Shown: in pieces, positions 6,266-31,048 of the stretch | How positions within the stretch are numbered: the stretch's first letter is position 1 | How the letters are laid out: every line of letters begins with the position of its first letter | Source of the DNA: Candidatus Helarchaeota ASGARD archaeon Hel_GB_B | GTDB taxonomy: Archaea > Asgardarchaeota > Lokiarchaeia > Helarchaeales > HEL-GB-B | DNA: 32,000 nt | NCBI GenBank assembly: GCA_005191425.1 | Contig: SUPR01000004.1 | Span: 30,001-62,000 of the forward strand | Reading direction: 5' to 3' | The notes under the pieces: model-generated | Seen by the model: the letters and a program-made list of their open reading frames with translations, nothing else | What the model was told of the DNA's origin: nothing | The model's database searches: none | Translations under genes and position numbers: made by a program

Positions 6266-6272
6266 GCCCTCA

Positions 6273-6944: not shown

Positions 6945-6978
6945 TTATTACATCTCTTTATTTTTTTCAAATAATATT

Positions 6979-7467
6979 TTATTTTATCATTTCATCGTAT
7001 TTATTATCATTAATTTCTTTAATAATTTCTTTTGCTACTTTTCCATCAACCGTTATTCCACAAGATTGACATGTTCCAATAATAGTCTTGACTCTTTTTT
7101 TAAGATCTTTTCCGAATAAAACTTTTTCCTTCATTTTTGCAATTTCTACAATTTTTGAAAATGGAATATTACCTACTAAATCGGTGCCTGCGGCGCCACT
7201 TCCTTTTTCGGTCTCTTTTACTTCTTTAATGATCAAAGCACTTGTCGGTGGCATACCAACTTCGACTTCAAACTCCTTGGTTTCTCTATCTACAGTGATA
7301 TTTACTGGTACTTTTAACCCTTTGTATTCGCTTGTTATTTCATTAATTTTCTGGACCACTTGATATAAATTGACTCCTGTAGAACCTAAAGCAGGCCCAA
7401 TTGGTGGCCCAGCACTTGCTTTACCGCCTTCAACTAATGCCGAAACTTTTACTTTTTGTCCAGCCAT
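6979..7467 (-). CDS. rpl11: 50S ribosomal protein uL11
   Basis: LVEGGKASAGPPIGPALG, VGMPPTSALI, IIGTCQSCGITVDG. Confidence 0.97.
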   Translation of the reverse strand: MAGQKVKVSALVEGGKASAGPPIGPALGSTGVNLYQVVQKINEITSEYKGLKVPVNITVDRETKEFEVEVGMPPTSALIIKEVKETEKGSGAAGTDLVGNIPFSKIVEIAKMKEKVLFGKDLKKRVKTIIGTCQSCGITVDGKVAKEIIKEINDNKYDEMIK

Positions 7468-7711
7468 TGTATATTAACCTGATAATTATGATTATTTTTA
7501 AATTTTTAATTTAACTAAATAATTTTGTTTAAATTTTTAATAGTAATATTTTAACTATTTTATTAGCTAAGTGGGATTAATCATTATATCAAATTTTTTA
7601 AATTTTTTCAAATTATATTCATTTAGAATCTTTTTCAAAATATTAAAATTTAATCAATAATCATAGTTTTTAATTAAAAAAATAAAATTCAGAATTATGG
7701 AGATATTAAAA

Positions 7712-8209
7712 ATGAAAATAGGAATAATATCTGATACGCATGACCATATAATTAATACGAATAAGGCTGTAGATATATTTAATTCACGAGGTGTAGAACT
7801 TGTCATTCATGCTGGCGATATAATTTCTCCCTTTATGGCTCCAAAGTCCTTCAAAAATTTAAAATGCCCGATGAAAATGGTCTATGGGAATAATGACGGC
7901 GATCTTTTATTTTTAAAACAAAAATTTAGTGAAATTGGAGTAGAAATTGAGCGTGAATTTTTAGAACTTGATCTACAAGGTAAGAAGATAATTGCTTTTC
8001 ATACCATAAATCCTACGATACTAAATGCAATGATCAAATCTGGTGTATTCTCTTTAATTATTTATGGACATACTCACGAAAAACAAATTAAAAAAGAAAA
8101 AAATACGCTAATAGTAAATCCAGGAGAATGTTGTGGTTATTTAACTGGTAATCCAACAATAGCAATAGTCGATTTAGATACTTTAACTGGAGAAATTATT
8201 GAAATTTAA
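7712..8209 (+). CDS. Metallophosphoesterase, MJ0936/YfcE family
   Basis: IISDTH, IHAGD, GNND, GHTH and NPG metal-binding motifs. Start placed at the second ATG (7712) behind a GGAG; the track start is 7697. Confidence 0.9.
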   Translation: MKIGIISDTHDHIINTNKAVDIFNSRGVELVIHAGDIISPFMAPKSFKNLKCPMKMVYGNNDGDLLFLKQKFSEIGVEIEREFLELDLQGKKIIAFHTINPTILNAMIKSGVFSLIIYGHTHEKQIKKEKNTLIVNPGECCGYLTGNPTIAIVDLDTLTGEIIEI

Positions 8210-9394
8210 TTACGGTGCGATCAATTTTGCGATGAAAAAGCCTTGACATTGGTGTTCTGTTGGTAGGAATCGTTGACATAATTTCATATCTAATCTTGAA
8301 TTAGATATTATACCCGGACTTCCTATATAAATAGGTTGATTTACTAATTTACACCCAAATTTTTTAATCATATATTCAATGTTCAATTCATTTTCTTCTA
8401 ACGTAAATGTACAAGTGCTATATACTATAGTCCCTCCAGGTCTAATATTTTTAATTGCAGATTGAATAAATTTCTTTTGATACCTTGCAAAATTTTCAAC
8501 ATCTTTTTTTGTAGTAAAGTTGGCAAGCTTTGGCCGTGTACCTAAAGCTGAACATGGCGGGTCAATTAGAATTTTATCCGCTTCATATCCTTCAAGCTTA
8601 GTTGAGTCAATCTTTTTTAATTCGATATTTTTAATACCTAATCTTTTAATATGTTCTTTGATACGATCTAACTTTTTATTCGATCTATCAATAGCAAGAA
8701 TGCGTCCTTTATTTTCCATTAATTGCGATAAATGCGTGGCTTTTCCACCTGGAGCTGCACACAAATCTATAATAAAATCATTTTTTTTAGGGCTTAAAAT
8801 TTTTGATGTAATAATTGCGGGAAGTGATTGGTCGTAAATCAATCCTTTTTGAAAAACTTTAAGGTCTTGAATTGAAATTCCTGAAAAAATAGATTCAATA
8901 TTTTTAGCTATTAATCCATGACCCATTATAGATAAATCATTTGATGATATAATTGATTTTACATTAGCAACTGGGATTAAAAAACCATTAAATTCTGAAA
9001 TGACCGTTAAAACTTCACCTTCACCAAATTTATCATATCTTTTTATTCCAGGTCTAAATAGATTTGCTCCTTGACTGATACTTTCCCCAGTAAATTTATC
9101 AACAAAAATTTTTTTCTTTAATATTTTTATTCTCTTCTTTTTAGGACTTAAATCATAATATATAATTTCAGGAATTTCTATCCCATTAGCTTGAAACTTT
9201 TTAAAATTTAGTCCTTCTTTTTTTAATAAACTTATTAATTCATTTGCATTAATTTTTAAGGTATTTACTCTAACCGTATAAAGGGGACTAGGAACGGTCA
9301 GAGATTGTAATATCTTTAAAGCATTCGTTTTATACAATCTTGAAAGTATATAAAATATATCATAATGAAATTTAGAATAATAAATTTTTTTCAA
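8210..9394 (-). CDS. RsmB/NOP2-family RNA m5C methyltransferase with PUA domain (NSun6-like, probably acting on tRNA)
   Basis: PUA-like GANLFRPGI; DLCAAPGGK, DPPCSALG, YSTCT, GFFIAKL; TTG start. Confidence 0.9.
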   Translation of the reverse strand: MKKIYYSKFHYDIFYILSRLYKTNALKILQSLTVPSPLYTVRVNTLKINANELISLLKKEGLNFKKFQANGIEIPEIIYYDLSPKKKRIKILKKKIFVDKFTGESISQGANLFRPGIKRYDKFGEGEVLTVISEFNGFLIPVANVKSIISSNDLSIMGHGLIAKNIESIFSGISIQDLKVFQKGLIYDQSLPAIITSKILSPKKNDFIIDLCAAPGGKATHLSQLMENKGRILAIDRSNKKLDRIKEHIKRLGIKNIELKKIDSTKLEGYEADKILIDPPCSALGTRPKLANFTTKKDVENFARYQKKFIQSAIKNIRPGGTIVYSTCTFTLEENELNIEYMIKKFGCKLVNQPIYIGSPGIISNSRLDMKLCQRFLPTEHQCQGFFIAKLIAP

Positions 9395-13451: not shown

Positions 13452-16400
13452 ATGGAATTAAATGAAATGTTTGAGGAATTGCAAAAAGAAGTACAACATT
13501 ATTTTGATAATTTAATTAAAGAAGTCAATGAATGTTATAAAATTGCGCAAAAAGCCAGAAGTAGAGGAAAAGACCCTTACGAAGGAGTAGAAATTCCTCC
13601 AGCTGAAGATGTAGCATCTCGAGTTGAGGAATTAATTGGTCCAAAAGGTGTAAAAAACAGAATTCAAGAATTACAAGAAAAAGGACTGGACAACGAAAAA
13701 ATAGCCTTTAAAATAACTAAAGAAATAATTGATAAAAAATTTATAAAAGATATTGACAAGGCTGAACTTGCAAAACTGGCAATCCGCGCAGGTCTTTGCA
13801 TTTTAACTTCCGGAATAACCGCAGCACCAATAGAAGGCTTAGTAGATGTTAAAATCAGGAAAAATAAAGATGGCACTGAATATATTGCAATGTATTTTTC
13901 AGGCCCAATAAGAGCAGCAGGTGGGACTGCAGCAGCTCAAGCTGTCATGTTAGGCGATTATGTCAGAAAACTAATTAAGTTAGATAGATATAAACCAAGT
14001 AATGACGAAATAGAACGTTATTTAGAAGAAATAATTTTGTATAAAAGATTGAGAAATCTCCAATTTCCTATTAAAGCTAAGTCTATTAGGTCAGCTGCTA
14101 AAAACTGTCCAATAGAAATTACTGGAGAACCTACTGAAAAAGAAGAAGTAACAGGTTATAGAAATATATGGCGAATTAATACGAATAAAGTTAGAGGTGG
14201 TGCATGCTTAGTACTTAATGATGGTATTATTGGAAAAGCTCATAAACTTATGAAAATAGTTGAAAAATTTGATTTTAAAGGTTGGGAATGGTTAAAAGAT
14301 TTACAAGAAAAAGAAGAAGAAATGGAATTAAAAGAAGATTCTGATCCTATTAAACCTAAAGACAAATTTATTGCGGGGATTATTGCTGGTCGTCCAATAT
14401 TTTCTCATCCCTCTAGAAAAGAAGGTTTCAGAATTAGATACGGACGTGTTAGAAATACTGGTCTAGCTGCAGTTGGACTAAATAAATACACAATGAAAAT
14501 TACTGGGAATTTTTTAGTTCAAGGAACGCAATTTATTACCGAACGTCCTGGAAAAGCTTCCATTAGTATTGCAGTTGATTCAATAGAAGGCCCAATTGTT
14601 AAAATTTTTGACGGCTCAGTCATAAAAATAGAAAATGAGATCACTTATAAAAAATATATGGATAAAATTCAGAGAATATTATATTTAGGTGATGTCCTTA
14701 TTGGTTTTGGAGAATTCTTGGAAAATAACCACATTTTAATACCTTCAGGCTATACAGAAGAATGGTGGTGCGCCGAATTTAAAGAAGTATTAAAAAAATA
14801 CTATAATAATCAAATTGAGGAACTGTCCACTAAGTTAAAAATAGATTCGGATAGACTTTCTACCTTATTATCAGATCCATTTTATAATTTTCCAAATGAA
14901 ATTGAAGCAATTAAAATATCTGAAATTTTAGGGCTCCCAATTCACCCAAAATATACATTTTTTTGGGAATATATCACAAGAGATGATGTAATTAAACTCC
15001 GAAACTGGTTGCTGACCGCTAAATATATTGATAATAATAATACAAATAAAAATAATAAAATTTCATCAATAAAAAATATGGAATTAGACTTAAAATCTCA
15101 TTCAGAAGAGAAAAAAATCCTAGAAATATTAGGAATTGAACATTTTGTTAAAGGTGACAAAATAATAATTGCCAAATATTCTTACATTATTCAAAAAATT
15201 TTTAATTTAAATGATCCAGAATCAAACTTTGAATTTATTCTACCGACAAAAAAGAATCATTTTGTAGGAAATTTTTTAAAATACAAAATTAGAGCAAAAG
15301 CTCCTTATAGAATAGGAGGAAGAATGGGGCGCCCCGAAAAAGCAGATGAAAGAGTAAAATTCCATACTTTATTCCCCGTAGGTAATGAAGGTGGAAATAG
15401 ACGAGATATAATTAAAGCGGCAGAAAATAAAATAATATCTTTGGAAATTGTAAATAGAAAATGTCCAAAATGTAACCAAGAGACTATTTATTACATTTGC
15501 CCAAAATGTCATATCCGAACAAAAATTATAACAAAATGCACTAATGTGAATTGTGGTAAAGAAGTCAATTCCGATTATTGTCCATATTGTAAAAGTCCTG
15601 TTAAAACTTATGGATATAAAAAAGTCAATTTAGCTCAAATTTTAAAAACAGCAAAATCTAATATAGAGGAAGAAATCCCTGCCTATATTAAAGGTGTTAA
15701 AGGGTTAATGAACAGACACCATATTTTTGAGCCTCTTGAGAAAGCTATCTTGAGAGTAAAATGGAATTTATATATATTTAGAGATGGAACAATTAGGTTT
15801 GATTCGGTCGATGCTCCATTAACTCATTTTACACCTAAAGAAATAGGGCTTTCTCTTGATAAGCTAAAGAAATTGGGATATTCTAGAGATATTTATGGTA
15901 ATAAGATTGAAAATTCAGAACAAATAATCGAATTAAAACCTCAAGATATAATAATTCCATATAATGGTGCGGATTTTTTAGTAAAAGTAGCTAACTTCAT
16001 AGATGAATTATTAATAAAATTCTATCATCTAAATCCATACTATAATATTGATACAATTGGTGATCTCATTGGGCAAATAGTAATTGGGTTAGCTCCTCAT
16101 ACATCAGCGGGCATAATTGGAAGAATTATCGGTTTTACTAAAAGTAAAATTTGCTATGCACATCCTTATTGGCATGCTGCAAAAAGAAGAAATTGCTTTC
16201 CTGGAGATACTACTATATTAATTAACATAAATGGAGTTCCTAAAAAAGTCTCCTTATATAAATTATATCATGAATTATTTGATAATGAAATTTTCTCCAA
16301 TTCTGTTTTCTCAAAAAATTTACCTAAAAAGGATATTAAAGTTTATTCTTTTGATTTAGAGAGTAAAAAAATAGTATTGACTGAAATTATTGATGTAATA

Positions 16401-19252: not shown

Positions 19253-19870
19253 TTATTCTTCAAGAGATTTTTTCAATTCGTCAATTTGTTCCTGTAATTG
19301 TTTCTTTTTAGTAGAAACAGGTTCCGTTGAAGGGACTTCAGGGATAATACCCGCCGTTTCTAGCTGGTCTTCCATTTCTAATCTATTTAATTCTCGTTCC
19401 ACATCTAAATCTTCCAATTCATCTCCACCGATTGCCGTTTCAAAAATATCGCCAACTCTTTCTATCTCAGCAATACTTTCTTCTGTTTCTAGACTAATTT
19501 CCAGAGCTCTATCAGATGAAACAATTTTTCTCGCTGCTTGTAATTCTTTACTAGCTAATTCCATCGCAGAAGTAAGCGTCTGGATATCAGCAGCTTCTTC
19601 AAGCGCTATAATACGGTCTTCTAATCTATTTGTAAAAGCAGTATAACGATTAGCCATCTTTTGAAATTTTGACCACCGCGCTAAATATTGTTTTGCAGAT
19701 TTTTTATTTCCGGCTTTTAAGAATTGCCTTGCCCGTCTATGGCTATCCGCGGCTCTTTTTACAAAAACTTTTTGTCTTAATTCTAATTTATTGATTGATG
19801 CTCTTAACTCTGCTATAGCATCCTCTTTCTTAGGCTTTTTACCCGGGAATAATTTTTTAAAAACACTCAT
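19253..19870 (-). CDS. ESCRT-III, Snf7/Vps20/32/60 class (ESCRT-IIIB)
   Basis: MSVFKKLF amphipathic N-terminus, basic helical hairpin (EDAIAELR..GNKKSAKQYL), acidic C-half, MIM2-like IPEVPS. Confidence 0.9.
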   Translation of the reverse strand: MSVFKKLFPGKKPKKEDAIAELRASINKLELRQKVFVKRAADSHRRARQFLKAGNKKSAKQYLARWSKFQKMANRYTAFTNRLEDRIIALEEAADIQTLTSAMELASKELQAARKIVSSDRALEISLETEESIAEIERVGDIFETAIGGDELEDLDVERELNRLEMEDQLETAGIIPEVPSTEPVSTKKKQLQEQIDELKKSLEE

Positions 19871-20168: not shown

Positions 20169-22940
20169 TTAAATTTCAATCATTGAGGCATTGATAATTT
20201 CATTCATTAATTCTTTTAATTCGTCTAGTTTATTATTATCTGTTGATACGCCTATAAGTGTTGCTATATTATTTGTTTTTGATTTTGTTGCTGTGAGGGC
20301 AATTTTACAGTCTTCTTTTTCAAACAATATAACCGGTATCTCTACTTGAATATTTATATTATTACAAATCCAATTTTTGTTTTTCAGAAATTTATAAGCT
20401 TTTTTAAGGAATTCATTTGGGTTTTCTTTAATTTCTTTTGAAATATCTGTGGAAAATGTTTGTTCTTTGAAATTAAATAAGTATTGATAAAATTTGTAAG
20501 TAATGAACCTCTTATTATATGCCATTAATGCTGGAATAGGTAGATTAATTTCAATGTTTTGAATTTGGTCAATTTTATTTTCTTCATTAATTTCAAGTTC
20601 TGTTCCTAATATTGTTTTTTCAATTTCGGAATCTGAAATTGAGCTATCTTCCATTTCAGCATTAAAATCTATAAATTTAGATGTTTCTCCACCAACAACT
20701 TTAGGTAATTCTTCGTTATCTTTTTGATTATTTTCTGTTGTATTTAGACTTTTTTCTTTTTCCAGAGTTTCAACTGGTATTACTGGCTGATCCATTGCAT
20801 CTATGATATCTGGGAGTGATTCACGTCCTGCATGCTGACTGCACCTTGGTCTTACATGTAAAACAAAACATCTTGAAGTACTTATTGATTCATCAGCAAT
20901 TAAACCACTACCCACAGCCATACTCCTAAAAAAGCTAGATTTTTCTACATCTTTAGGTATATCTCCTGGGATCCGCGTAACTAGTGCATTGATGTCGGTC
21001 TTATAAGTTAATAAGTGTGATAGAAGAATATCTAATTGTGATAAAATTTGTGAGTTAGTAGCAGCTGGCTGTTGGGTAACTAAAACAAGACCGCATCCTG
21101 GTTTTCTCCCCAATTTTGCATATTGAATTAATGGTTCTGATGCAGCTGTTTTTCCACTTGAAGGTATTAAAAGATGAGCTTCATCAATTAATAACCATGT
21201 TACTGGAATTTCATTTATTCCAGTCTCAACTTTTACAGATCTATCAACTTTTGCTGCATCTAATCTCCTTGAAATCCTTAATCTCTCTTTTAAAATTTTT
21301 CGTGCTAAAATTCCTATTATTAAAGATCTTAGCCCCTCTTCTAAAAAACTAACATCAATTACAGAAATTTGGTTAGGTACTGAAAGATCACTTAATTTAG
21401 TACCTGTATTTGAAAATATACCCCAATCTCTTGCTATTTCAAGTCGCGAAATAACAGCTCTTCTAGTCCTCACATCAAAACCTTGTGATTTTGAAGTTAA
21501 CATTCGAGATTCATTTATACAATCTATTAGATCAGCTAAAGTAAAATAATCTCCCATTCTAGGGACTGGAATTCCAAATTCGTCAATATATCCTTCTCTT
21601 ACTTGGTTTATTGCTTTTTCAATTAGAATTCCTCTCGGACTAAATCTATCAATTCCAAATGTATAACACCAATCATCTGCAGTTAATTCACTTGGTAAAA
21701 GAGAAAAAGCCTCATCACGGGTAGCTTCAGAACATGAATTGTAAAAACCTAATGGAACAAAAATTTTCACTTTTTCTGCAAATGACTTTGGTTCTAAACC
21801 CCATTTTTTTAATACATCTACCTCTTTACTTGTCCAATTTCCAAATTTCATACTCCAAAAAATTCCCATTGGATCGACAATTATAGTCCCAATTCCTATA
21901 TTTGTCTTGGCCAATTCCTCGGCTATAACTCCCATTGTATATGATTTCCCAGAACCTCGGTGACCACAAATGAAAATAACATGTGGTTTTACACAATCTA
22001 AATATATATCTCTCCCAAAATGACCTAAACTCTGTTCTGGTTTTTCACAAACTTTACCAATATATAATAGACCTCGATTTCCAATTTTTTTATGAAAACT
22101 TCTAGACCTCCCCAAAATTCCCACGTTTTTTTCTTCATCAATTAAAATTTCAAGTTCCTCGCTTATTATAGGTGTATAATCACCAAATAAATCATGTTTC
22201 CAGTTTTCAATTTCACCAATTGCATAGGCTGTGGCTATATACAAATCTTTAGCTGTCTTTAATTCTGAAATCATGTTGTCTAATATATATCTTCTCAAAT
22301 CAAGAGAAGTAGGATAATACTCTTTTTCATACCCTGATATTTCCCAAATAAAATAATCTAATGAATCATCCTTGGACAAATCATCAAACGGTTCAACAAG
22401 CGTATATGCAGGCGCTAAGTAATCTGGATTTCGAGTCAAAAGATACAATAGAATATAAAACTTAAAATCATTGATTGATTCTAACTTTTCTTCAATGATC
22501 TCTAAAATCTTATTTTTGTATCTTTCATCTATTGTCCTTTTATATACAAAATACAAAATTTGAAAATTAATAAATTTTAATTCGTCAAGGTTTATATTAA
22601 TAACATCTTCTTGGAATTCTTTAACATAATTACTAACTTCTTTTAAATTCTTTAATTCTACAAGTCTATAATATAACAAAATCAAATTAATACTATTTTC
22701 ATCTAAATTTTTTCTATCTATAGTTTGTAAGTCATTTCTAGGCCCCTTTGAAAAAATGTTTTTCTCAATTCTTGAAAAAATATCTTCACCATATTTTTCA
22801 TCGATAGCTAATTTATATAAATTAATATATGCCAGTGAAAGTAGTATCCTTTCATTAATATCGTCTGGATCAGGCTCATAATTCCATAATTGATTGGTAA
22901 TTTTTTGAATTATTGTATAATTTAACACTTTATCACACAT
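20169..22940 (-). CDS. HerA/FtsK-superfamily (DUF87-type) ATPase with extra N- and C-terminal domains
   Basis: Walker A GHRGSGKS (21942-21965), IIVDPMGIF, Walker B WLLIDEAH, GRKPGCGLVLVTQQP, VRPRCSQHAG; ~270-aa N-terminal and ~220-aa C-terminal additions. Confidence 0.88.
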   Translation of the reverse strand: MCDKVLNYTIIQKITNQLWNYEPDPDDINERILLSLAYINLYKLAIDEKYGEDIFSRIEKNIFSKGPRNDLQTIDRKNLDENSINLILLYYRLVELKNLKEVSNYVKEFQEDVININLDELKFINFQILYFVYKRTIDERYKNKILEIIEEKLESINDFKFYILLYLLTRNPDYLAPAYTLVEPFDDLSKDDSLDYFIWEISGYEKEYYPTSLDLRRYILDNMISELKTAKDLYIATAYAIGEIENWKHDLFGDYTPIISEELEILIDEEKNVGILGRSRSFHKKIGNRGLLYIGKVCEKPEQSLGHFGRDIYLDCVKPHVIFICGHRGSGKSYTMGVIAEELAKTNIGIGTIIVDPMGIFWSMKFGNWTSKEVDVLKKWGLEPKSFAEKVKIFVPLGFYNSCSEATRDEAFSLLPSELTADDWCYTFGIDRFSPRGILIEKAINQVREGYIDEFGIPVPRMGDYFTLADLIDCINESRMLTSKSQGFDVRTRRAVISRLEIARDWGIFSNTGTKLSDLSVPNQISVIDVSFLEEGLRSLIIGILARKILKERLRISRRLDAAKVDRSVKVETGINEIPVTWLLIDEAHLLIPSSGKTAASEPLIQYAKLGRKPGCGLVLVTQQPAATNSQILSQLDILLSHLLTYKTDINALVTRIPGDIPKDVEKSSFFRSMAVGSGLIADESISTSRCFVLHVRPRCSQHAGRESLPDIIDAMDQPVIPVETLEKEKSLNTTENNQKDNEELPKVVGGETSKFIDFNAEMEDSSISDSEIEKTILGTELEINEENKIDQIQNIEINLPIPALMAYNKRFITYKFYQYLFNFKEQTFSTDISKEIKENPNEFLKKAYKFLKNKNWICNNINIQVEIPVILFEKEDCKIALTATKSKTNNIATLIGVSTDNNKLDELKELMNEIINASMIEI

Positions 22941-23283: not shown

Positions 23284-23886
23284 CTATTTTTCCTCTTTTA
23301 GTCTTTTAATTTCCTTTTCAAGTTCAGCTATTCTTGATGGTGTTGATGGTAATGCCATACCTGTTTCTACTGAAATTTCTTGGTCAATTTCTGCCAAAAC
23401 TTTATTGGTTTCTTGGGGTGAAACTTCTGTCTTTACGGTAATATTTTGAATTCCATCTTGTGCCATGTCTTGGGCTATATCGAACCCTTCAATTTGAGAA
23501 TCAATTTGGTCTATAATCTGTGTAACATTCTGGATATTAACTGATGAACGTAGTCCATTTAATGCTCTATGGATTCCGCTCAAGATTTTAGCCGTTTCAG
23601 CAGTTGCTTGGGTCTGTTTTAATTTCATTAATAAACCCATGATATGTAGACGATAAGTATCAACTCCTAATGCCCATTTTTGAAACCTTACCGTATTTTC
23701 TGCATATAATTTAGCAGCTGCATCGTTTCCTTGTTCTCTATATTTTCTTGCCCTTGCTCTATTCTGAAGACTTTCCTTTTCCAATGTTTTCCTTTGATAA
23801 TCTAATTTCCTACAAAATACATCAATCTTAAATATCAAATTCTTAAGATTATTTCCTTTTAACCAGTTAATGAATTTTGACGCCAT
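23284..23886 (-). CDS. ESCRT-III, Vps2/24/46 (Did2/CHMP1-like) class (ESCRT-IIIA)
   Basis: QGNDAAAKLYAENTVR resembles recalled CHMP1 KGNMEVARIHAENAIR; C-terminal MIM1-like helix IAELEKEIKRLK. Confidence 0.9.
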   Translation of the reverse strand: MASKFINWLKGNNLKNLIFKIDVFCRKLDYQRKTLEKESLQNRARARKYREQGNDAAAKLYAENTVRFQKWALGVDTYRLHIMGLLMKLKQTQATAETAKILSGIHRALNGLRSSVNIQNVTQIIDQIDSQIEGFDIAQDMAQDGIQNITVKTEVSPQETNKVLAEIDQEISVETGMALPSTPSRIAELEKEIKRLKEEK

Positions 23887-24559
23887 TTTTTAAACCAGAA
23901 TTAATATTTTCACTAACTATTATTAATAATTAATCATTAATAAAAAAACCTTTGGTATTATCTACATTATTATTTATATTTTTTATTTAGACCAATAATC
24001 GATAAAAAATATTATTACCTATAAATTTTCTCGAAATTTATTGTGAATTTAGTTCTAATCAATATTTAGTTTTAATCAATATTTCAATAAGAAAAATTTA
24101 AAACATTTTTTCCATCCTTTTTTAGAAAACATAATAATTAAATAACTATTATAAATATTTAATCTGTTTAAATTAGCAATTTATAGTAATCTTATTGTTT
24201 AAATACAATTTTAACCATAAAAATAATAATTTTAAAAGAAATATTATTCATAATTTTTCGATAAAAAATAAAATTTGATTAATAATTAATTTAATAGTTG
24301 TCTTATTAAAGGTAGATTTGAGCAATTTATAAAGGCTTTTATATTTTTTAATTAAATTTGTATTACGGACAAATTATTTATTGATAACGCTTATTTGCAG
24401 TATTTATGAATTAGAAAAATACTTTTAATTTATAGAGTTAGTAATTTAGTTAATGATAAAACTTGATAAGGTTTATTATTTTAAATTAATTCTATTAAAT
24501 AGTAGGAATCAAAATAAATCAAACTTAATTGATAAATTCAAAATAATTGGTGCCTTTAA

Positions 24560-25744
24560 ATGAGTAAGATATTATTTCAGAAAGCAATGGAAATAGCAAA
24601 AAATGCGATTGCTTTAGACGAAGAAGGTAATTATGATACAGCGATTAAAAGGTATTTAGAATCTGCAGATATATTAATGCGATATATTCAATTATCAACG
24701 AATCCCGAAATGAAACGTATTTGTTATGAACGAGCTCAGGAATATATTAGACGTGCAAGTGAGTTAAGAGAGGCGACTCCTTCTCGGCGTCGAAAGGTAT
24801 CAAGACCAAGAGGTAAAAGAAAAGATGGAAAGGCCCCTAAAAGTTCTGAGCCCTTAACTGAAGAAGAAGAAAAATTAAGAGATGCTATTTCTGAAACAAT
24901 TGTTGTTGAAAAGCCAAATATAAAATTATCAGAAGTAGCTAACTTAGAAACTGCAAAACAGGCATTAAGAGAATCTATTATATTACCCATTTTAAGGCCA
25001 GATCTTTTTAAAGGTGGAAGACAACCTTGGAAGGGGATATTATTATATGGCCCGCCCGGATGTGGTAAGACTTATTTGTCCAAAGCAATTGCCACTGAAT
25101 GCGATGCGACTTTTTTGAATGCTGATGCCGCATCTTTAGTATCAAAGTGGCTTGGTGAATCTGAGCGTCTGATAAAAGAATTATTCTCATTGGCAAGAGA
25201 GGAAGCGCCATCTATTGTTTTTATTGATGAGGTTGATAGTATTGCCACTGCACGAGGCGCTAAAGAAATGGGCGGTGAGAGACGAATAAAAACGCAGTTA
25301 TTAATTGAAATGGACGGGATGAAAGCAAAAAAAGATGAACGGATAATAATTCTAGGTGCAACAAATAGACCATGGGATCTTGATGCAGCATTTAGAAGAA
25401 GATTTGAAAAGAAAATATATATTGGTCTTCCAGACGTTAAAGCTAGGGAACTAATGTTTAAGTTAAATACTAGAGAAGTTGAAATTGCACCAGACATAGA
25501 TTTTAGTGAATTTGCAAAATTAACTGAAGGTTATACCGGGTCTGATATTTCACTCTTATGTCGTGAAGCTGTAATGATGCCTATCAGGGAAATCGATTTA
25601 ACCCAAGATATTACTCGTATTGACAAAGTCCGACCAGTATCAAGAGATGATTTTATTGCAGCAATGGAAAAAATCAAACCAGTTGTTTCTCCCGAAGAAT
25701 TAAAACAATACGATGAATGGACACAAAATTATGGAATGGAATGA
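24560..25744 (+). CDS. vps4: Vps4 AAA+ ATPase (MIT domain + AAA domain)
   Basis: N-terminal MIT (AMEIAKNAIALDEEGNYDTAIKRY), GPPGCGKT, FIDEVD, ATNRPWDLDAAFRRRF. Confidence 0.95.
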   Translation: MSKILFQKAMEIAKNAIALDEEGNYDTAIKRYLESADILMRYIQLSTNPEMKRICYERAQEYIRRASELREATPSRRRKVSRPRGKRKDGKAPKSSEPLTEEEEKLRDAISETIVVEKPNIKLSEVANLETAKQALRESIILPILRPDLFKGGRQPWKGILLYGPPGCGKTYLSKAIATECDATFLNADAASLVSKWLGESERLIKELFSLAREEAPSIVFIDEVDSIATARGAKEMGGERRIKTQLLIEMDGMKAKKDERIIILGATNRPWDLDAAFRRRFEKKIYIGLPDVKARELMFKLNTREVEIAPDIDFSEFAKLTEGYTGSDISLLCREAVMMPIREIDLTQDITRIDKVRPVSRDDFIAAMEKIKPVVSPEELKQYDEWTQNYGME

Positions 25745-26573
25745 ACTTAATATGGAAGAAGGTATAAAAAAGAAAAAAGAACAAGAAGAGGAAAAAGGTG
25801 AAGAAAAATCAGTTGAAGACCTAGAAAATGAATTAAAAAAACTACAACAAAAAATAAATGCAAGCACTGGAATTGCTAAGCGAAAATTAGCTAAAAAAAT
25901 AGAAAATAATTCAAAAATATCTGAACATAAGAGTGTTAACCTCAGTACAAATATGATATCTTTGTCTGAAACGGAAATAAAGAAAGAAGATGAACGAGGA
26001 ACTCAAATTAAAAAATTATGGGAAATTTATAAATGGGCTGATAACCATGAAAAATTTCCTTGGATGTATTTTATACCTGACAAAAAGTCTAGCGGAGATA
26101 ATTGGAAAGAAAACTTCGAAGCATGGAAAAATGATTGGGTAAAATTCACTATTGATTGGGCACGTGTCTATATATTTCATATTCTTGATATGTATGAAAT
26201 AGTTAAAGAAAAACCATATATTTTTCTTAATGAACGAGAAAAAGCAATCAATATTATTTTTAAAAATCTTGTTGATATGAAACGAGGAAAAAATAAATTA
26301 GCCCAATGGATTGGTAAAGATAAAAACAAGATCCGAATATATTGGAGAAGTCTAGATGAATGGGCTAATTTGTTATATGAATGGGCAATTAATGGTGGAG
26401 GAGATATTTTTACATTAATCGATTTAAAAAAAGCAGGTGAAGAGATTCCTGGATTCGATACATTACCAGATGAGGATATAAGAGAAATAATCAATATTCT
26501 AGTTAGGCAAAAAAAAGCCAGATGGATTGACAAACAATTAATTAGAGTAAAAATATTGGTTAAAGGACTTTAA
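25713..26573 (+). CDS. vps25: ESCRT-II subunit Vps25 with N-terminal extension
   Basis: FPWMYFIP (compare recalled human WPWQYRFPP), tandem winged helices, IYWRSLDEWANLLYEWA. Start could be 25713, 25731 or 25752; the first two overlap the vps4 3' end. Confidence 0.88.
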   Translation: MNGHKIMEWNELNMEEGIKKKKEQEEEKGEEKSVEDLENELKKLQQKINASTGIAKRKLAKKIENNSKISEHKSVNLSTNMISLSETEIKKEDERGTQIKKLWEIYKWADNHEKFPWMYFIPDKKSSGDNWKENFEAWKNDWVKFTIDWARVYIFHILDMYEIVKEKPYIFLNEREKAINIIFKNLVDMKRGKNKLAQWIGKDKNKIRIYWRSLDEWANLLYEWAINGGGDIFTLIDLKKAGEEIPGFDTLPDEDIREIINILVRQKKARWIDKQLIRVKILVKGL

Positions 26574-26586
26574 TTATTTGTATGAA

Positions 26587-27309
26587 TTAGCCACCAAGAC
26601 CTGGAAAATAATATCTTTTACCAGTAGCATAAGATAAATCAACCTTGGCTATATTATTATCTATTAAAGTTTGCAAAACTCTTTCAATGCGATCTTGGGT
26701 CCAATTTGTATTCATTAAGATCTCTTCTAATGTTATATAACCTTTTTTTGATGCCAAATTTAATATTATACTTTGATCTGGCGTTAATTCTACTGGAATA
26801 AATTCTACAATTTTTATTCCAGAATCTAATTTTTTAATTCCTGGAATGATGTCTGCATTTTCGAGTATATTTATTGCTTTAATTACATCCAAGGCAGATA
26901 CCACATCATTTGGTCTCCCTTCATTGATCATCAACACTACTTCTGCAAGAGTCATTATTCCACCGGTCTCAAGTATTTTCTTTTTAGCCATATTTAAAAT
27001 TTGGACACTTAATTGATTATAAAATTGTCCTTTCCCCGTGATTTTTTCTATCATATTTGGTTTGACTTTAAATTTTTCACTAGGTATTTCTGACATACCT
27101 ATTTCTAGCCTAATTTTCTTTAATTTTTCTTGATATTCTGGGTTTTCTACAATTAAATCTCCATATTTATTTTCAAATTCTTCTATTTGTTTTCTTAATT
27201 CTTTAACTGAATTCAACATTAATTCCAATTCTTTAACCATATATTCAGGTGATTTTTTTTTGATTTTGGCCCTTAATTCAATATCTTTTTCAATCTCCCG
27301 TAAACCCAA
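26587..27309 (-). CDS. vps22: ESCRT-II subunit Vps22/36 (EAP30 family, Vps22/SNF8-like)
   Basis: FYNQLSVQI, GGIMTLAEV, PVELTPDQSIILNLA..KGYITLEEI, YYFPGL; TTG start with AGGTGA at 27317-27322. Confidence 0.92.
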   Translation of the reverse strand: MGLREIEKDIELRAKIKKKSPEYMVKELELMLNSVKELRKQIEEFENKYGDLIVENPEYQEKLKKIRLEIGMSEIPSEKFKVKPNMIEKITGKGQFYNQLSVQILNMAKKKILETGGIMTLAEVVLMINEGRPNDVVSALDVIKAINILENADIIPGIKKLDSGIKIVEFIPVELTPDQSIILNLASKKGYITLEEILMNTNWTQDRIERVLQTLIDNNIAKVDLSYATGKRYYFPGLGG

Positions 27310-27369
27310 TATAGAATCACCTAATTTTATTTAATACTACTTTTATCATATTGTAATTTTAATATAGAA

Positions 27370-28329
27370 TTAGAGGTCTTGAAGGCGCCTCTTAAAGTCT
27401 TGGGCCCATCTAACCACATCAAATTCCAATTCACTATTTTCATCAGAATCCAGTATTTCATTCGGATTTTTTACTGATAATTTTTCTCTCCATTGATTGG
27501 CTGCTTTATATACCCAGTAATCCTTTCCAAAACCTGGAAATTTTTCTATAATTAATAAAATATCATCTAATATAGGCATGATTGAACTAACTTTTGCCAT
27601 ATCTAATTTTGTATAATCTGAAATTGTAATAAAATGTGCCACAAGATCCGAACTCATTGTAGCTATCTTAGCTTTAGAAACACTTGCAATTTCAAGCGGT
27701 GAAATTTCAACAATTGATTTCTCGGAAAACCTTAATTTTTGAGTCGCAAAAGGAAATCGTTCCGCAATTTTTTCTCTCTTTAAGAATTCTTCCATATTAT
27801 AATCTATTTCTTTTAATTCTAACTGAGCTTTAAATGCATCTCTCATTAAAGACCGTAATTGCCTTTTATAAGTGGGCGGGTCTAATTTTCCCTCTTCAAA
27901 ATTCTTAATTACACTGTTCAATGTGGCAATACACGAATAAAATTCAGCTTCTATTTTTAGTCGGTCGTCTTCAGTAATCTTTTTTCTAATTTTTATTTTT
28001 GATTTATCCAATTTTGAAGTTTTCTGGGCAGTTTTTCGCGTTTTTTCTATATTTTTTGGCTCTAGATCTATTTTCTTTTGTACTTTATTTATTGAATTAT
28101 TTTGGCCTTTTTTTTCCTCCTTTACAAATTGCTTTTCTTCCAGATTTTTATTATCTACTTCTTTTGTTTTAACTTTATCTTTTATTATTTCTTTTGTAGT
28201 TACTGTTTTTCGTGCCAATTCCGATTGTAATAATGCTAATTCTTCTTCCAACTCTTCTATGGTCTTATCGTCTGCTAATTTATCTTCTTCTATCTTCCTT
28301 TTCTCTAATAAACTCATATCAGCAACCAT
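27370..28329 (-). CDS. vps28: ESCRT-I subunit Vps28 with N-terminal extension
   Basis: Core hairpin EFYSCIATLNSV..Y..QLRSL and C-terminal four-helix bundle VAHFITISD..IMPILDDI..ANQWREKL..LEFDV. Confidence 0.88.
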   Translation of the reverse strand: MVADMSLLEKRKIEEDKLADDKTIEELEEELALLQSELARKTVTTKEIIKDKVKTKEVDNKNLEEKQFVKEEKKGQNNSINKVQKKIDLEPKNIEKTRKTAQKTSKLDKSKIKIRKKITEDDRLKIEAEFYSCIATLNSVIKNFEEGKLDPPTYKRQLRSLMRDAFKAQLELKEIDYNMEEFLKREKIAERFPFATQKLRFSEKSIVEISPLEIASVSKAKIATMSSDLVAHFITISDYTKLDMAKVSSIMPILDDILLIIEKFPGFGKDYWVYKAANQWREKLSVKNPNEILDSDENSELEFDVVRWAQDFKRRLQDL

Positions 28330-28413: not shown

Positions 28414-29190
28414 TTAACTCGATTTAAGCTCTTCAAGTTTCTTATTTATCAAATATAGATTTTTTGTATATTTTTTATATAATCTAGAATATTCTCCTGA
28501 ACCTATCTCTGCATTATCAAATTTTTCCTCAAGCGTCTGAAGAAGATCTTCTATTGCTATTTTTTCACTTTCCAAATCGATAATTTGTTTTTTAATTGGA
28601 TCTGAAGGTAATAATATGCTTTCTAAATTACTTGTACCCTCATCTGGGACATTATGGACGTCCAGTTGCCCTCTTAAATGTGCAACAACTTCATCTCTTT
28701 GAGTTAATCCATCTCTCAGTGAATTAATTTCAGATTCAAGTCTCTTCACTTCTCTCTCTAATTTTTCCTCTTTACTTGATGGAATATATGAAACTGGTTC
28801 ATGTTCTGGTTCTTTTTTTGCTTGAAGATTCCTATTTAAAAGGGAGGCTAATTTTGGGGGTACACGTGCATATAACCCTTTTATTGAATTAATTACTTGA
28901 TAAACATGATAATCTGGTCTCCAATATGTTAAAATTCGAAGATGAACTTGACCATTCTCATCAACTTTTGGATGTTCTGTTGGGGTTATCATTTTTACTG
29001 TAGGTGGCTTTTTAGGAAAAGCGTCAGGTATTCTTATTTCCAACTCGAAATTTGTATTTTTATATTCACCTCTACCCGGAATACTACCCCTCCAAATTTT
29101 TAAATTACCACCTACTGGCTCAAATTCTTTCGCGCGTTTATATAATAATTCTGCTTCTTTTGCCAATATAAAGTCAAGCTGTTCTGACAT
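28414..29190 (-). CDS. vps23: ESCRT-I subunit Vps23/37 (UEV domain, coiled coil, steadiness box)
   Basis: E2-fold N-terminus without catalytic Cys (HPKVDENGQVHL); coiled coil; steadiness box LESEKIAIEDLLQTLEEKF..EI...EY.RLY. Confidence 0.9.
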   Translation of the reverse strand: MSEQLDFILAKEAELLYKRAKEFEPVGGNLKIWRGSIPGRGEYKNTNFELEIRIPDAFPKKPPTVKMITPTEHPKVDENGQVHLRILTYWRPDYHVYQVINSIKGLYARVPPKLASLLNRNLQAKKEPEHEPVSYIPSSKEEKLEREVKRLESEINSLRDGLTQRDEVVAHLRGQLDVHNVPDEGTSNLESILLPSDPIKKQIIDLESEKIAIEDLLQTLEEKFDNAEIGSGEYSRLYKKYTKNLYLINKKLEELKSS

Positions 29191-29300
29191 GTAATCACAT
29201 CTTTTTACATTACTATTATACTATATATTTTGAATTTTGACTCTAATATTAGTTAGAAATTTTTAACTTATTATCATTACTATTTTTTTAAATTATTAAA

Positions 29301-29330
29301 TCGGACTTTTCCGACCATTATGACCATTAT
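29301..29330. repeat. Short inverted repeat plus 9-bp tandem repeat upstream of vps23
   Basis: TCGGA-N4-TCCGA (29301-29314) overlapping GACCATTAT twice (29313-29330). Confidence 0.7.
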
Positions 29331-29935
29331 ATAATTTTTAACTTAAATTTAAATTATTATTCTATTGAAAATATAAAGGAAATTTGTTTCATTTACTTAT
29401 TTTAAAGATTTTTTTAAAATTACATTAATAATATAATTTTATTATTTCTAATAAACATTTTTAGAATTCTAAATTTTAAAAATTCTTATATTCCATTTAA
29501 ATAAATTTAACTCCACTCTTGCTTGAAAATCTTTTTGTAATTTATCAATATTTCATTAATAATTTACACATATATATTTTTTATTGCCAATTTTTTTAGT
29601 TAAATATTATTAGAAATAAATTGAGCATTCTAACCTTAATAATGTAAAGTTAAACAAACAAAATCCAAAATATTTAAGATATTAATTTTTTAATTTTCTA
29701 TTTTTTCTTAATAATTTCAATCAACTAATTTCAATTTTAAAATTTTGTTTGGTAAATTACTTTAATTAATAAATTAACAATTAAAAATTAGATTTTTCCT
29801 ATTAAGTTATAATTTTCAAACAGGAAACTTTTTCAAATGTTATATTCAAATATTGAAGTCATTGATGTGTGTGGATTAATCGCATTTATATTAAACTAAA
29901 ATTTTTAAGGACGAAGTCTACTTTATCATAAATGG

Positions 29936-30364
29936 TTAATGAGAGGGTGATTTTGGTTTTACTATTTTCTTTAGTACTGAATATATTTTTGCTTCTAAAT
30001 TATTTTCAAGTGTTATAATGGTCTGATTTAAATTTTTAATTGAATTTTCTAAAATATCAAATTTTTTTTGATTTTCTTTAATAGATTTTTCAATTTTATC
30101 TTGAATTGATGACACTCCCTCTTTTAAAGCGGAAAATGAAATCGTCTCTTCAGCTAATAATTTTTTTAAACTTTTCAGTTCTCTTTCTACCGATTCCATC
30201 ATTTTCAAAACCTCATTATTAATGTCTGATCTATTTTTTGCCATTTCTTCATTCAAAATATTTAGGCCCTTGACTATTTCTTTAACTGCATCAATTGTAG
30301 GAACTGGCCCAACAGGTGTATCTAATGCGTCAATTTCAATCTCAATTTTTTCATTTTCAGACAA
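29936..30364 (-). CDS. Hypothetical coiled-coil protein within the ubiquitin-ESCRT locus
   Basis: 142-aa ORF with TTG start; N-terminal IEIEIDALDTPVGPVPTIDAV then heptad-rich helix; co-oriented with vps23/vps28/vps22. Confidence 0.75.
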   Translation of the reverse strand: MSENEKIEIEIDALDTPVGPVPTIDAVKEIVKGLNILNEEMAKNRSDINNEVLKMMESVERELKSLKKLLAEETISFSALKEGVSSIQDKIEKSIKENQKKFDILENSIKNLNQTIITLENNLEAKIYSVLKKIVKPKSPSH

Positions 30365-30799: not shown

Positions 30800-31048
30800 T
30801 TAATTTTTCGGGGAACCCCCTTCGGTCCGTGCAATTAAATAAAGTTTATCGTAATCATTTATCCCAACATCTGCTAAGCTCTGGTTTTCATTCCTAATTT
30901 CAGTACCTCTAAATGCTAATACAAAAATCGATGTAGGAATACGTTTTCTTTGTGAAATTTCTCGCTTTAAATCAACAATTCTCGTATTTGGAGGTACTTG
31001 AATTTCCATTACATCTCCACCAATAGCACTAACAATCCTAATAATCAT
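30800..31048 (-). CDS. Ubiquitin-like modifier precursor (GG followed by SPKN)
   Basis: Beta-grasp pattern, LAFRG, C-terminus LYLIARTEGG-SPKN. Confidence 0.9.
   Translation of the reverse strand: MIIRIVSAIGGDVMEIQVPPNTRIVDLKREISQRKRIPTSIFVLAFRGTEIRNENQSLADVGINDYDKLYLIARTEGGSPKN

Follow-up and report, generated by a model that had tools for sequence, protein, structure and literature searches.

How are the ESCRT-I, ESCRT-II, ESCRT-III and Vps4 components of Asgard archaea connected, when Vps36, Vps37 and Mvb12 are not available to connect them? This wiring bears on how the eukaryotic endomembrane system arose, and one ESCRT locus of Candidatus Helarchaeota ASGARD archaeon Hel_GB_B (order Helarchaeales) raises it in a specific form, because an initial annotation of its sequence had pointed out an 18-residue match, with 8 identities and 5 conservative pairs, between the N-termini of Vps25, an ESCRT-II subunit, and Vps28, an ESCRT-I subunit. 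Here, "the window" means the whole stretch of DNA analysed, 32,000 nt of contig SUPR01000004.1 (positions 30,001–62,000). Both the coordinates and the counts of the match proved exact; the question is what one kind of helix does on subunits of two ESCRT complexes.

The ESCRT locus

The Pfam assignments at the locus are ESCRT-II/Vps25, VPS28, EAP30, UEV plus Vps23_core, Snf7 and MIT-AAA Vps4, and the features discussed below are collected in Table 1. The Vps25 core scores 48.6 bits (cut-off 27) with the ESCRT-II model PF05871 (tandem winged-helix) over residues 126–230, and Vps28 scores 60 bits (cut-off 24.5) with the VPS28 model PF03997, which describes an N-terminal helical hairpin and a C-terminal four-helix bundle, over profile positions 2–187 of 188. 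An upstream ATG of vps25 at 25713, which gives a 32-nt overlap with the end of vps4, is the start in database orthologues; the true start of vps28 is likely to be the second ATG at 28317 (MSLLEKRK), judging from orthologues that begin with MSLLEKRK or MSLMEKRK. The vps22/36-like gene encodes the single ESCRT-II core subunit in the locus and has no GLUE/NZF region according to Pfam. The 142-aa coiled-coil protein (135–142 aa among orthologues) becomes a candidate common partner, because it was found at all four of the Helarchaeales ESCRT loci examined. An Rfam scan over the window gave no matches.

Table 1. Features of the ESCRT locus, with positions counted from the first letter of the window
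Feature	Position	Strand	Description and basis
ESCRT-IIIA (CHMP1/2/3-like) gene	23284–23886	−	Closest PDB matches CHMP1B/1A/2A/3
ESCRT-IIIA C-terminal MIM1-like tail	23287–23337	−	SRIAELEKEIKRLKEEK; conserved across Asgard; heptad pattern as in module, likeness not significant
vps4	24560–25744	+	MIT domain at 24560–24799 (Pfam MIT PF04212, E 4.9e-14, residues 7–71); candidate partner of module
vps25 (ESCRT-II subunit)	25752–26573	+	273 aa from ATG at 25752; Pfam PF05871, E 1.3e-12; orthologues
Vps25 N-terminal module	25788–25919	+	44 aa in alignment A7; capped acidic heptad helix EKSVEDLENELKKLQQKI, then conserved T, K and hydrophobic positions; AF2 helix, profile matches
Vps25 linker, module to winged-helix core	25920–26015	+	Low-complexity, variable; identity, pLDDT
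vps22/36-like gene (EAP30)	26587–27309	−	Pfam PF04157, E 2.8e-23 over whole 240 aa
vps28 (ESCRT-I subunit)	27370–28329	−	319 aa; NTD and CTD both present; Pfam PF03997, E 3.4e-16
Vps28 linker	27982–28152	−	K-rich, hypervariable; identity among orthologues, pLDDT, alignment A5
Vps28 N-terminal module	28153–28284	−	44 aa in alignment A7; DKTIEELEEELALLQSEL, then ARKTVTTKEIIKDKV; AF2 helix, profile matches
UEV-Vps23 (ESCRT-I)	28414–29190	−	UEV domain, stalk helix, steadiness box; Pfam UQ_con/UEV/Vps23_core
142-aa coiled-coil protein	29936–30364	−	Weak coiled-coil Pfam matches alone; orthologues

A common N-terminal module

The matching segments, residues 18–35 of Vps25 (25803–25856, plus strand; EKSVEDLENELKKLQQKI) and residues 21–38 of Vps28 (28216–28269, minus strand; DKTIEELEEELALLQSEL), form the centre of a longer N-terminal module, which aligns without gaps over about 40 residues and has the pattern [ED]K[ST][IV]x[ED][LI]ExE[LIA]xK[LI]QxK[IV]xxx[ST]xx[VI]Kxx[LIF]. 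Alignment A7, in which 14 sequences are aligned without gaps over 44 columns, has conserved K7, L12, E13, E15, S/T27 and K31 and a conserved hydrophobic position 34. The module starts with a helix cap, [ST]-x-x-E, and goes on as an uninterrupted amphipathic heptad helix, acidic in its first half (ELExE) and rich in lysine in its second. Hydrophobic residues at columns 9, 12, 16, 19, 23, 30, 34 and 38 follow a 3-4-3-4 spacing, and the module has hydrophobic a/d positions over at least 3–4 heptads, as is characteristic of helices that form coiled coils, so that it is a candidate for oligomerisation.

The AF2 models of both proteins show a single helix of about 33 residues and, behind it, a low-confidence linker. 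The helix of Vps28 covers residues 20–54 with pLDDT of about 80, and pLDDT then lies at about 33 (32–37) over residues 50–110; Vps25 has the same layout at lower confidence, with a helix at residues 21–53 (modest pLDDT, 53–65) and pLDDT below 50 at residues 40–76. The linker that tethers the module to the folded core has 25–130 residues, is hypervariable and is predicted to be disordered. The initial annotation had described a K/E-rich run before the helix and a low-complexity linker after it in both proteins; these are seen in the sequence, and the AF2 layout agrees.

Profile comparisons indicate that the two modules are homologous. When an HMM was made only from Vps28 N-termini of other genomes, Vps25 of this genome ranked second among 5245 frames, behind Vps28 itself (18.2 bits, E 1.4e-4; next best 7.6 bits). 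Conversely, the only matches of a full-length Vps25-only profile in three genomes of another Helarchaeales family (f2, below) were the N-termini of Vps28-NTD proteins (E 1.4e-5 to 4.8e-3). Evidently the module passed by copying between two genes of one locus, one for ESCRT-I and the other for ESCRT-II. We relied on such leave-out tests and dropped the counts of a regular expression, [IV].[ED]LE.E[LIVA]..[LI], which gave five matches in 1.1 Maa of frames, three of them Vps25, Vps28 and the ESCRT-IIIA tail; the pattern was defined post hoc, and the counts are circular because it was written from the matched sequences themselves.

In relatives that lack the extension, the first core helix of Vps28 reads K-S-L-E-E-L-E-A-D-L-Y; its likeness to the module was seen by eye only, and we do not claim an origin by duplication.

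Conservation and distribution

Alignment of Vps25 and Vps28 N-termini in relatives showed that the extensions are conserved in all three Helarchaeales families (f1, f2 and f3). Among Vps28 orthologues of f1, the family of this genome, mean identity is 79% in the module, equal to that in the core, and 27% in the linker; the mean pairwise identities for Vps25 are 55% in the module, 33% in the linker and 78% in the core, and the Vps25 linker is about 80 aa longer in a same-genus orthologue. Later start codons might have left the extensions untranslated, but they are clearly translated, because the module is conserved at the protein level across the three families and the linker is not. On this comparative evidence the module appears to be selectively maintained in Vps25 and Vps28, and because the extensions are both conserved in relatives and translated, the view of the initial annotation that the N-terminal helices are functional interaction elements is supported.

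The sample consists of seven genomes and about ten metagenomic proteins, and its members, as relatives, are non-independent. In the seven Helarchaeales genomes the eight bearers of the module score 35–53 bits and all other proteins at most 19.8 bits. A motif-profile search of 400 Asgard genomes did not find the module in other Asgard lineages, where the matches, of 17–25 bits only, were generic coiled coils and ESCRT-III tails. Against 1.84 billion proteins (E ≤ 1e-3), the module profile recovered only Vps25, Vps28, short Vps28-NTD proteins and one repetitive coiled coil, and no further protein family with the module was found in the order-wide, phylum-wide and 1.84-billion-protein searches. 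Other profile matches, namely the Zn-ribbon coiled-coil protein of family f19, the ~350-aa coiled-coil protein of genus g7 and SMC-like proteins, were rejected as generic coiled coils. As far as these searches reach, the module is specific to Vps25 and Vps28, including the Vps28-NTD proteins, and to the order Helarchaeales.

The families differ in which subunit bears the module. In f1, the Vps25 and Vps28 bearers occur together. The f2 loci have Vps4, a module-bearing Vps28-NTD protein, which is short, missed by the Pfam VPS28 search and recovered by protein query only, and UEV-Vps23; neither a Vps25 core nor Vps22 was found in the f2 genomes. The f3 loci have Vps4 and a module-bearing Vps25, and no Vps28 was found in the f3 genomes; in genome G003, UEV-Vps23 was also not detectable. 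Divergent genes could be missed in f2 and f3, because these absences are based on profile searches of MAGs that are 82–94% complete. Vps4 was present in every Helarchaeales genome examined.

A tethered assembly handle as the favored explanation

The explanation that we favor, and which in our judgement falls just short of probable, is that the tethered heptad helix serves as a common assembly handle that pairs with helices of its own kind or with a partner common to its bearers. Subunits of ESCRT-I and ESCRT-II would thus receive one and the same handle, a "helix on a leash," which would most likely form a short coiled coil. Copies of the module may pair with each other, clustering Vps28 and/or Vps25 and, where both exist, mixing ESCRT-I with ESCRT-II; or the module may form a coiled coil with one partner found throughout the order, such as the 135–142-aa coiled-coil protein, ESCRT-III or Vps4. 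Such a handle would be independent of the presence of the other bearer, because f2 keeps the module on Vps28-NTD and f3 keeps it on Vps25, each with the other bearer not found. The conserved a/d/e/g face of the module fits a coiled coil and a groove-docking helix equally well.

Other explanations

A helix that docks in a groove is the basis of the strongest alternative, which we nevertheless consider unlikely: the module may be a MIM1-like MIT-interacting motif, through which the Vps4 MIT domain docks on ESCRT-I/II subunits as it does on the ESCRT-IIIA tail, and recruits or recycles them. MIM1 helices lie in the groove that helices 2 and 3 of the Vps4 MIT domain form. The initial annotation had likened the module to this MIM1-like tail, and at the level of pattern, that is, of heptad register, the likeness holds: the module shares I-x-x-L-E-x-E-[IL]-x-K-L with the ESCRT-IIIA tails encoded in its own genomes (SRIAELEKEIKRLK in this one, GKISELEDEIKKLK in genome G005, TRIQKLEEEIRKIK in genome G002), and three of the five matches of the post hoc expression mentioned above were the two modules and the tail. 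Like the MIM1 of Vps2/24/46-class ESCRT-III (for the Asgard version, Lu et al., 2020, PMC7240154), the module combines a short amphipathic Leu/Ile helix with a flexible tether, and its register L-x-x-x-[LI]-x-x-L recurs in the ESCRT-IIIA tail encoded here, a helix that is likewise flexibly tethered. The constant presence of Vps4 in the Helarchaeales genomes examined also suits MIT docking. The likeness does not extend to profile similarity. With an HMM of six ESCRT-IIIA tails, the Vps25 N-terminus ranked 51st–68th and the Vps28 N-terminus 108th–238th in this genome, and in the reverse searches with module profiles the tail ranked 13th–97th; since neither direction gave a signal beyond the coiled-coil background, we rejected homology between the module and the ESCRT-IIIA tail as evidence, and the sequence can no longer be cited in favor of the MIT/MIM1 idea.

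Position and length also separate the two. MIM1 lies at the C-terminus of Vps2/24/46-class ESCRT-III, whereas the module is at the N-terminus of ESCRT-I/II subunits, which are non-ESCRT-III proteins; conservation covers about 40 residues against about 12–15 in MIM1, extending about 20 residues beyond a core of MIM1 length (T27, K31 and hydrophobic 34). The module departs from the MIM1 consensus (D/E)xxLxxRLxxL(K/R), although the hydrophobic positions, three Leu/Ile residues, fit. Neither basic residue of the consensus (R at 7, K/R at 12) is retained: an invariant Glu occupies position 7, likewise in Asgard tails, and position 12, which is invariantly basic in the tails, varies among modules (Q/K/N/V/S). 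A bearer gene always adjoins vps4, but this adjacency is not specific evidence, because vps25–vps4 adjacency is general in Asgard archaea (PMC10936438). A complex prediction of the Vps4 MIT domain (residues 1–80, 7-row alignment) with the Vps25 N-terminus (residues 1–57, 9-row alignment) scored 0.15 against a mark of 0.32, which counts neither for nor against binding.

Decidedly unlikely, in our view, is that the module acts in cis, as an acidic/basic hairpin that folds back on its own complex in a regulatory, steadiness-box-like manner, or that its lysine-rich half binds membrane like the basic N-terminal helix of eukaryotic Vps22. A steadiness-box-like hairpin consists of two antiparallel helices and becomes part of the ESCRT-I headpiece. 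The acidic and basic halves are parted by a conserved S/T-rich segment (ASSG, RKTV and QQTQ in alignment A7), and some of the extra N-terminal subdomains of Asgard Vps25 are SB-like, as reported by Makarova et al. (PMC10936438). The AF2 model is one continuous helix and not a hairpin, yet the S/T/G-rich columns 25–28 of alignment A7 could form a turn. The best-conserved residues of the module are acidic (E13 and E15), a misfit with membrane binding, and lysine is abundant throughout this AT-rich proteome, the linkers included.

The initial annotation had also proposed a specific pairing of the Vps25 and Vps28 helices, bridging ESCRT-I to ESCRT-II in place of the missing Vps36 GLUE/NZF contact. 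In its favor are the joint occurrence of both bearers in this genome and its family, the homology of the two heptad helices and the single Vps22/36-like protein with no GLUE/NZF region. The proposal has been weakened, however, by the strong conservation of the module in f2, in which the searches recovered no Vps25 core, and in f3, in which they recovered no Vps28, and by a published link between Asgard ESCRT-I and ESCRT-II through Vps22, detected by yeast two-hybrid and made without such helices (PMC9192718); the acidic first half present in both helices also disfavors a parallel hetero-pair. We therefore regard such a bridge as very improbable in general, and an obligate Vps25–Vps28 bridge as unlikely because f2 and f3 keep the module with the other bearer not found.

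Finally, the view that generic LExELxxL coiled-coil heptads happen to look alike here, and share neither origin nor function, is effectively refuted: generic Asgard coiled-coil proteins do reach 17–25 bits against the motif profile, and LEREVKRL occurs in Vps23, a caveat of the initial annotation itself, but the cross-family profile matches are unique genome-wide in four genomes, the ungapped match covers about 40 residues, the module is always N-terminal, and the search of 1.84 billion proteins recovered Vps25/Vps28 proteins plus one repetitive coiled coil.

Relation to known systems and significance

A common assembly handle, as favored above, may be compared with accessory elements of eukaryotic ESCRTs. 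The stalk and headpiece of eukaryotic ESCRT-I (the Vps23/Vps37/Mvb12 coiled coil and steadiness-box hairpins) likewise use heptad helices to assemble ESCRT subunits, whereas the module is set off from its core by a long disordered linker and is found also on an ESCRT-II subunit. To our knowledge, Vps37 and Mvb12 are absent from Asgard archaea, and therefore other helices must take over this assembly role. Eukaryotic ESCRT-II has extra targeting elements, the N-terminal helix H0 of Vps22 and the GLUE domain of Vps36. The module resembles these in being an N-terminal accessory element that would add an ESCRT-II contact; H0, however, is basic, membrane-binding and located on Vps22, whereas the best-conserved residues of the module are acidic and the module is not on Vps22. 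In archaea, the nearest parallel is the set of extra N-terminal subdomains of Asgard Vps25 (cog.003176; Makarova et al., 2024, PMC10936438), which are similarly lineage-specific helical additions before the two winged-helix domains; the module differs from them in being a single tethered helix that is homologous on Vps28 and stand-alone Vps28-NTD proteins and is found in Helarchaeales only. The searchable text of that paper does not describe a shared module, and we found no description of a module shared by Vps25 and Vps28 in the literature. A preprint (bioRxiv 10.1101/2023.07.25.550441) already describes the expression and assay of Helarchaeal Vps28, Vps23, ubiquitin and E1/E2/E3.

The module points to a lineage-specific connection that is invisible to the published Asgard interaction maps (Loki, Thor, Odin and Heimdall). 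If it is merely a self-associating coil, it would be a modest lineage-specific embellishment. A bolder reading, to which we give a low probability, is that the module is a universal Helarchaeales adaptor that plugs whichever upstream ESCRT subunit bears it directly into the Vps4 MIT domain or ESCRT-III. If true, this would explain how ESCRT-II and the C-terminal domain of Vps28 could be dispensable in one family, and Vps28, or even ESCRT-I as a whole, in another, while a ubiquitin-to-scission pathway was kept working in each, and the Helarchaeales would then offer a natural experiment in minimal ESCRT wiring among relatives of the eukaryotic ancestor.

The ubiquitin-ESCRT locus in the window

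Seven species genomes are all that represent the order Helarchaeales, and they fall into three families: f1 (this genome and G001), f2 (G002, G004 and G006) and f3 (G003 and G005). Pfam searches show that the window carries an Asgard ubiquitin-ESCRT locus. The HerA/FtsK-like ATPase between ESCRT-III genes is a conserved locus member in the three families, with 907 aa in G002 (5634-8357 of its locus L103) and 491 aa in G005 (14167-15642 of its locus L101). Ubiquitin has a four-residue pro-peptide, SPKN, beyond the di-glycine, and an identical extension is known from a Helarchaeia contig (bioRxiv 10.1101/2023.07.25.550441), which supports assigning the genome to Helarchaeia. Two AT-rich gaps, one of ~670 bp flanked by the divergent ESCRT-IIIA and vps4 genes and one of ~745 bp from vps23 to the coiled-coil gene, contain no ORF >36 aa and no Rfam match, and are probably promoter regions. 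A second EAP30/Vps22-like gene of this genome (C108:14385-15014; 43.6 bits) lies outside the window, off the main ESCRT locus.

Features of the ubiquitin-ESCRT locus (window coordinates)
Feature	Position	Strand	Source
ESCRT-III (Snf7), Vps20/32/60-like	19253-19870	-	Pfam
HerA/FtsK-like ATPase, 923 aa, between two ESCRT-III genes	20169-22940	-	
ESCRT-III (Snf7), CHMP1/2/3 (Vps2/24/46) class	23284-23886	-	Pfam
AT-rich gap	23887-24559		
Vps4 (MIT-AAA)	24560-25744	+	Pfam
Vps25	25752-26573	+	Pfam
Vps22/36-like EAP30 protein, single copy in locus	26587-27309	-	Pfam
Vps28	27370-28329	-	Pfam
UEV-Vps23	28414-29190	-	Pfam
AT-rich gap	29191-29935		
Ubiquitin, product ending ...TEGG-SPKN	30800-31048	-	
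Coiled-coil protein (142 aa)			
Small RING-like protein			
E2			

A helical module common to Vps25 and Vps28

The initial annotation had aligned N-terminal peptides of Vps25 (25803-25856) and Vps28 (28216-28269), and both these coordinates and its count of 8/18 identities plus 5 conservative pairs proved exact. The likeness reaches past the 18 residues: 14 sequences align over 44 columns with zero gaps, seven of them Vps25 (this genome, G001, G003, G005 and three metagenomic relatives) and seven Vps28 (this genome, three relatives and three f2 genomes). The module opens with an [ST]-x-x-E helix cap; L12, E13 and E15 are invariant, K7 and K31 near-invariant, column 27 is S/T, and columns 9, 12, 16, 19, 23, 30, 34 and 38 are hydrophobic.

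An HMM built solely from the Vps28 N-termini of other genomes was compared with every frame of 80 aa or more in this genome (5245 frames): the top match was Vps28, followed by Vps25 (18.2 bits, E 1.4e-4), and the third had 7.6 bits. When the HMM was made from just the three f2 proteins, Vps25 already came out on top. A full-length Vps25 profile containing zero Vps28 sequences found, in six-frame searches of the three f2 genomes, one place each, the N-terminus of a short protein with only the Vps28 N-terminal domain (E 1.4e-5, 2.7e-4 and 4.8e-3; at most 88 profile positions covered). In the reverse direction, a Vps25 HMM gave a weaker signal for Vps28, which ranked 9th with default settings and 3rd once composition correction was turned off. 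An exhaustive search of 1.84 billion representative proteins with the 44-residue module profile gave ten matches at E<=1e-3: nine Vps25, full-length Vps28 or Vps28-NTD proteins (the last of 133-153 aa) and one repetitive coiled coil. Judged by these sequence comparisons, the likeness exceeds chance, on which four tests agree, and the module is a real, statistically solid feature.

The module is inside the proteins with either start, 28329 or, as orthologues have, 28317 for Vps28, and 25752 or 25713 for Vps25. The in-frame upstream ATG of the latter (25713-25751) adds 13 residues, with an overlap of 32 nt at the end of vps4; it is the annotated start of database orthologues (MNGLRVLEWNE...), and conservation of the stretch may only reflect the overlapping vps4 reading frame. 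Among f1 orthologues, mean identity of Vps28 is 79% in the module and 80% in the folded core, whereas the linker has 27%; the values for Vps25 are 55%, 78% and 33%, and a same-genus Vps25 keeps the helix with a linker ~80 residues longer. The N-terminal extensions are therefore conserved in relatives, translated and kept by selection, so that the doubts raised on these points in the initial annotation do not apply. AF2 models give a helix from the cap residue onward in Vps28 (20-54, pLDDT about 80) and Vps25 (21-53, pLDDT 53-65), with pLDDT 30-40 between helix and core in both. At the extreme N-terminus, an ESCRT-I and an ESCRT-II subunit share a homologous amphipathic helix of ~33 residues that is conserved and restricted to this lineage, with a long disordered tether behind it.

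Distribution in Helarchaeales and other Asgard archaea

Every genome has Vps4, ESCRT-III of both classes, the ubiquitin enzymes and a coiled-coil protein of 135-142 aa. In f1, Vps25 and Vps28 with the module occur together in the locus. The f2 and f3 genomes are MAGs of 82-94% completeness, and their missing bearers are to be read as not found, not as proven absences. The G002 locus (L103, G002:C243:30000-49059) runs ESCRT-III, HerA-like, ESCRT-III, Vps4, Vps28-NTD with the module, UEV-Vps23, coiled-coil protein, RING, Ub, E2 and E1; its Vps28-NTD has 156 aa (136-156 aa in f2) and no C-terminal domain. Vps25 and Vps22 were not found in this locus, nor was the Vps25 core found by Pfam and profile searches in any of the f2 MAGs, where EAP30 matches were weak only. 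In the f3 loci (L101, G005:C10:96000-115900; L102, G003:C112:10000-29900) Vps4 is followed by Vps25 with the module; Vps28 was not found there, nor UEV-Vps23 in the G003 MAG with a G005 query. This pattern is consistent in 5/5 f2 and f3 genomes. ESCRT-I/II gene content thus varies as a mosaic among the Helarchaeales families, and the EAP30-like genes of G005 sit elsewhere in its genome, off the ESCRT locus.

In 400 Asgard genomes, the module profile found nothing >25 bits outside the order, weaker matches being generic coiled coils or ESCRT-III tails. The best of these (~24 bits), a conserved ~230-aa Zn-ribbon and coiled-coil protein containing GDRSIAELEKEIKPLQKKIKALK (L078-L094; family f19, genus g54, of another Asgard class), is probably a generic coiled coil. 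Vps28 of other Lokiarchaeia begins directly with the core helix. Extension-less Vps28 proteins (P0014-P0023; L008, L011 and L025) start this helix with K-S-[IL]-x-x-L-E-x-[ED]-L, like the module start, which may hint at an origin by duplication of the first core helix. In other Lokiarchaeia (L006, L017-L024, L030), proteins of ~790-800 aa end in a match to the VPS28 model that covers just its C-terminal half, and they fit the multidomain Vps28-C proteins of Makarova et al. 2024.

Possible roles of the module

We infer that the module is an interaction handle. A coiled-coil handle, pairing with like helices or with an ever-present partner, is the class of explanation we tentatively favor, at a little under even chances. 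The ~33-residue helix would then form a short coiled coil, which its length of four to five heptads, its acidic first and basic second half and its conserved a/d/e/g face fit. Like helices could pair antiparallel or as mixed oligomers, gathering subunits into clusters that, in f1, would contain both ESCRT-I and ESCRT-II; alternatively, the helix could pair with some coiled-coil partner that every genome has.

Binding to the MIT domain is unlikely. The initial annotation had likened the module to the ESCRT-IIIA tail, SRIAELEKEIKRLKEEK in the window, a conserved Asgard feature (variants GKISELEDEIKKLK, GRISKLEEEIRKLK and TRIQKLEEEIRKIK within the order, KKVSELEKEIKKLK in another class) corresponding to the Leu/Ile-rich MIM1-like helix of Lu et al. 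(PMC7240154). The heptad register is indeed in common, but statistically nothing more: with a tail HMM the Vps25 and Vps28 N-termini rank 51st to 238th in this genome, and with module HMMs the tail ranks 13th to 97th. Module conservation also runs ~20 residues beyond a MIM1-sized core, and by the criteria tested the module is not a MIM1 family member. The window has one CHMP1/2/3-class ESCRT-III; G005 has two tandem paralogues (L101 12713-13330 and 13347-13964), both with MIM1-like tails (EKMIELEKEIKKLKEEKL and GKISELEDEIKKLKQGKD).

A cis-regulatory hairpin, or a membrane or other role, is somewhat less probable still. We consider it quite improbable that the module is an exclusive Vps25-Vps28 bridge standing in for Vps36, as had been proposed: it is maintained in f2 and f3, where the other bearer was not found, which argues against an obligate helix pair. 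In yeast two-hybrid assays of Asgard lineages without the module, ESCRT-I is linked to ESCRT-II through Vps22, and Vps25 contacts ESCRT-IIIB (PMC9192718); a stand-in for Vps36 is therefore not strictly needed. Chance likeness is hardly credible.

Relation to known work

Makarova et al. (PMC10936438) describe that the Vps28 SB-like and C-terminal domains can be on separate genes, Hatano et al. that residues 1-58 of Odinarchaeal Vps25 were cut away for crystals, and the above-cited preprint (bioRxiv 10.1101/2023.07.25.550441) a measured Helarchaeal Vps28-Vps23 interaction. Neither the searchable texts of these papers nor a targeted literature search gave a description of the module common to Vps25 and Vps28, which appears undescribed so far. 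The genes are ordinary Vps25 and Vps28 family members, and the module is a new, lineage-specific feature on them. Its significance is moderate, as it belongs to one small order only, and would gain weight if it is true that the module links the pathway in those Helarchaeal families that have only ESCRT-I or only Vps25.
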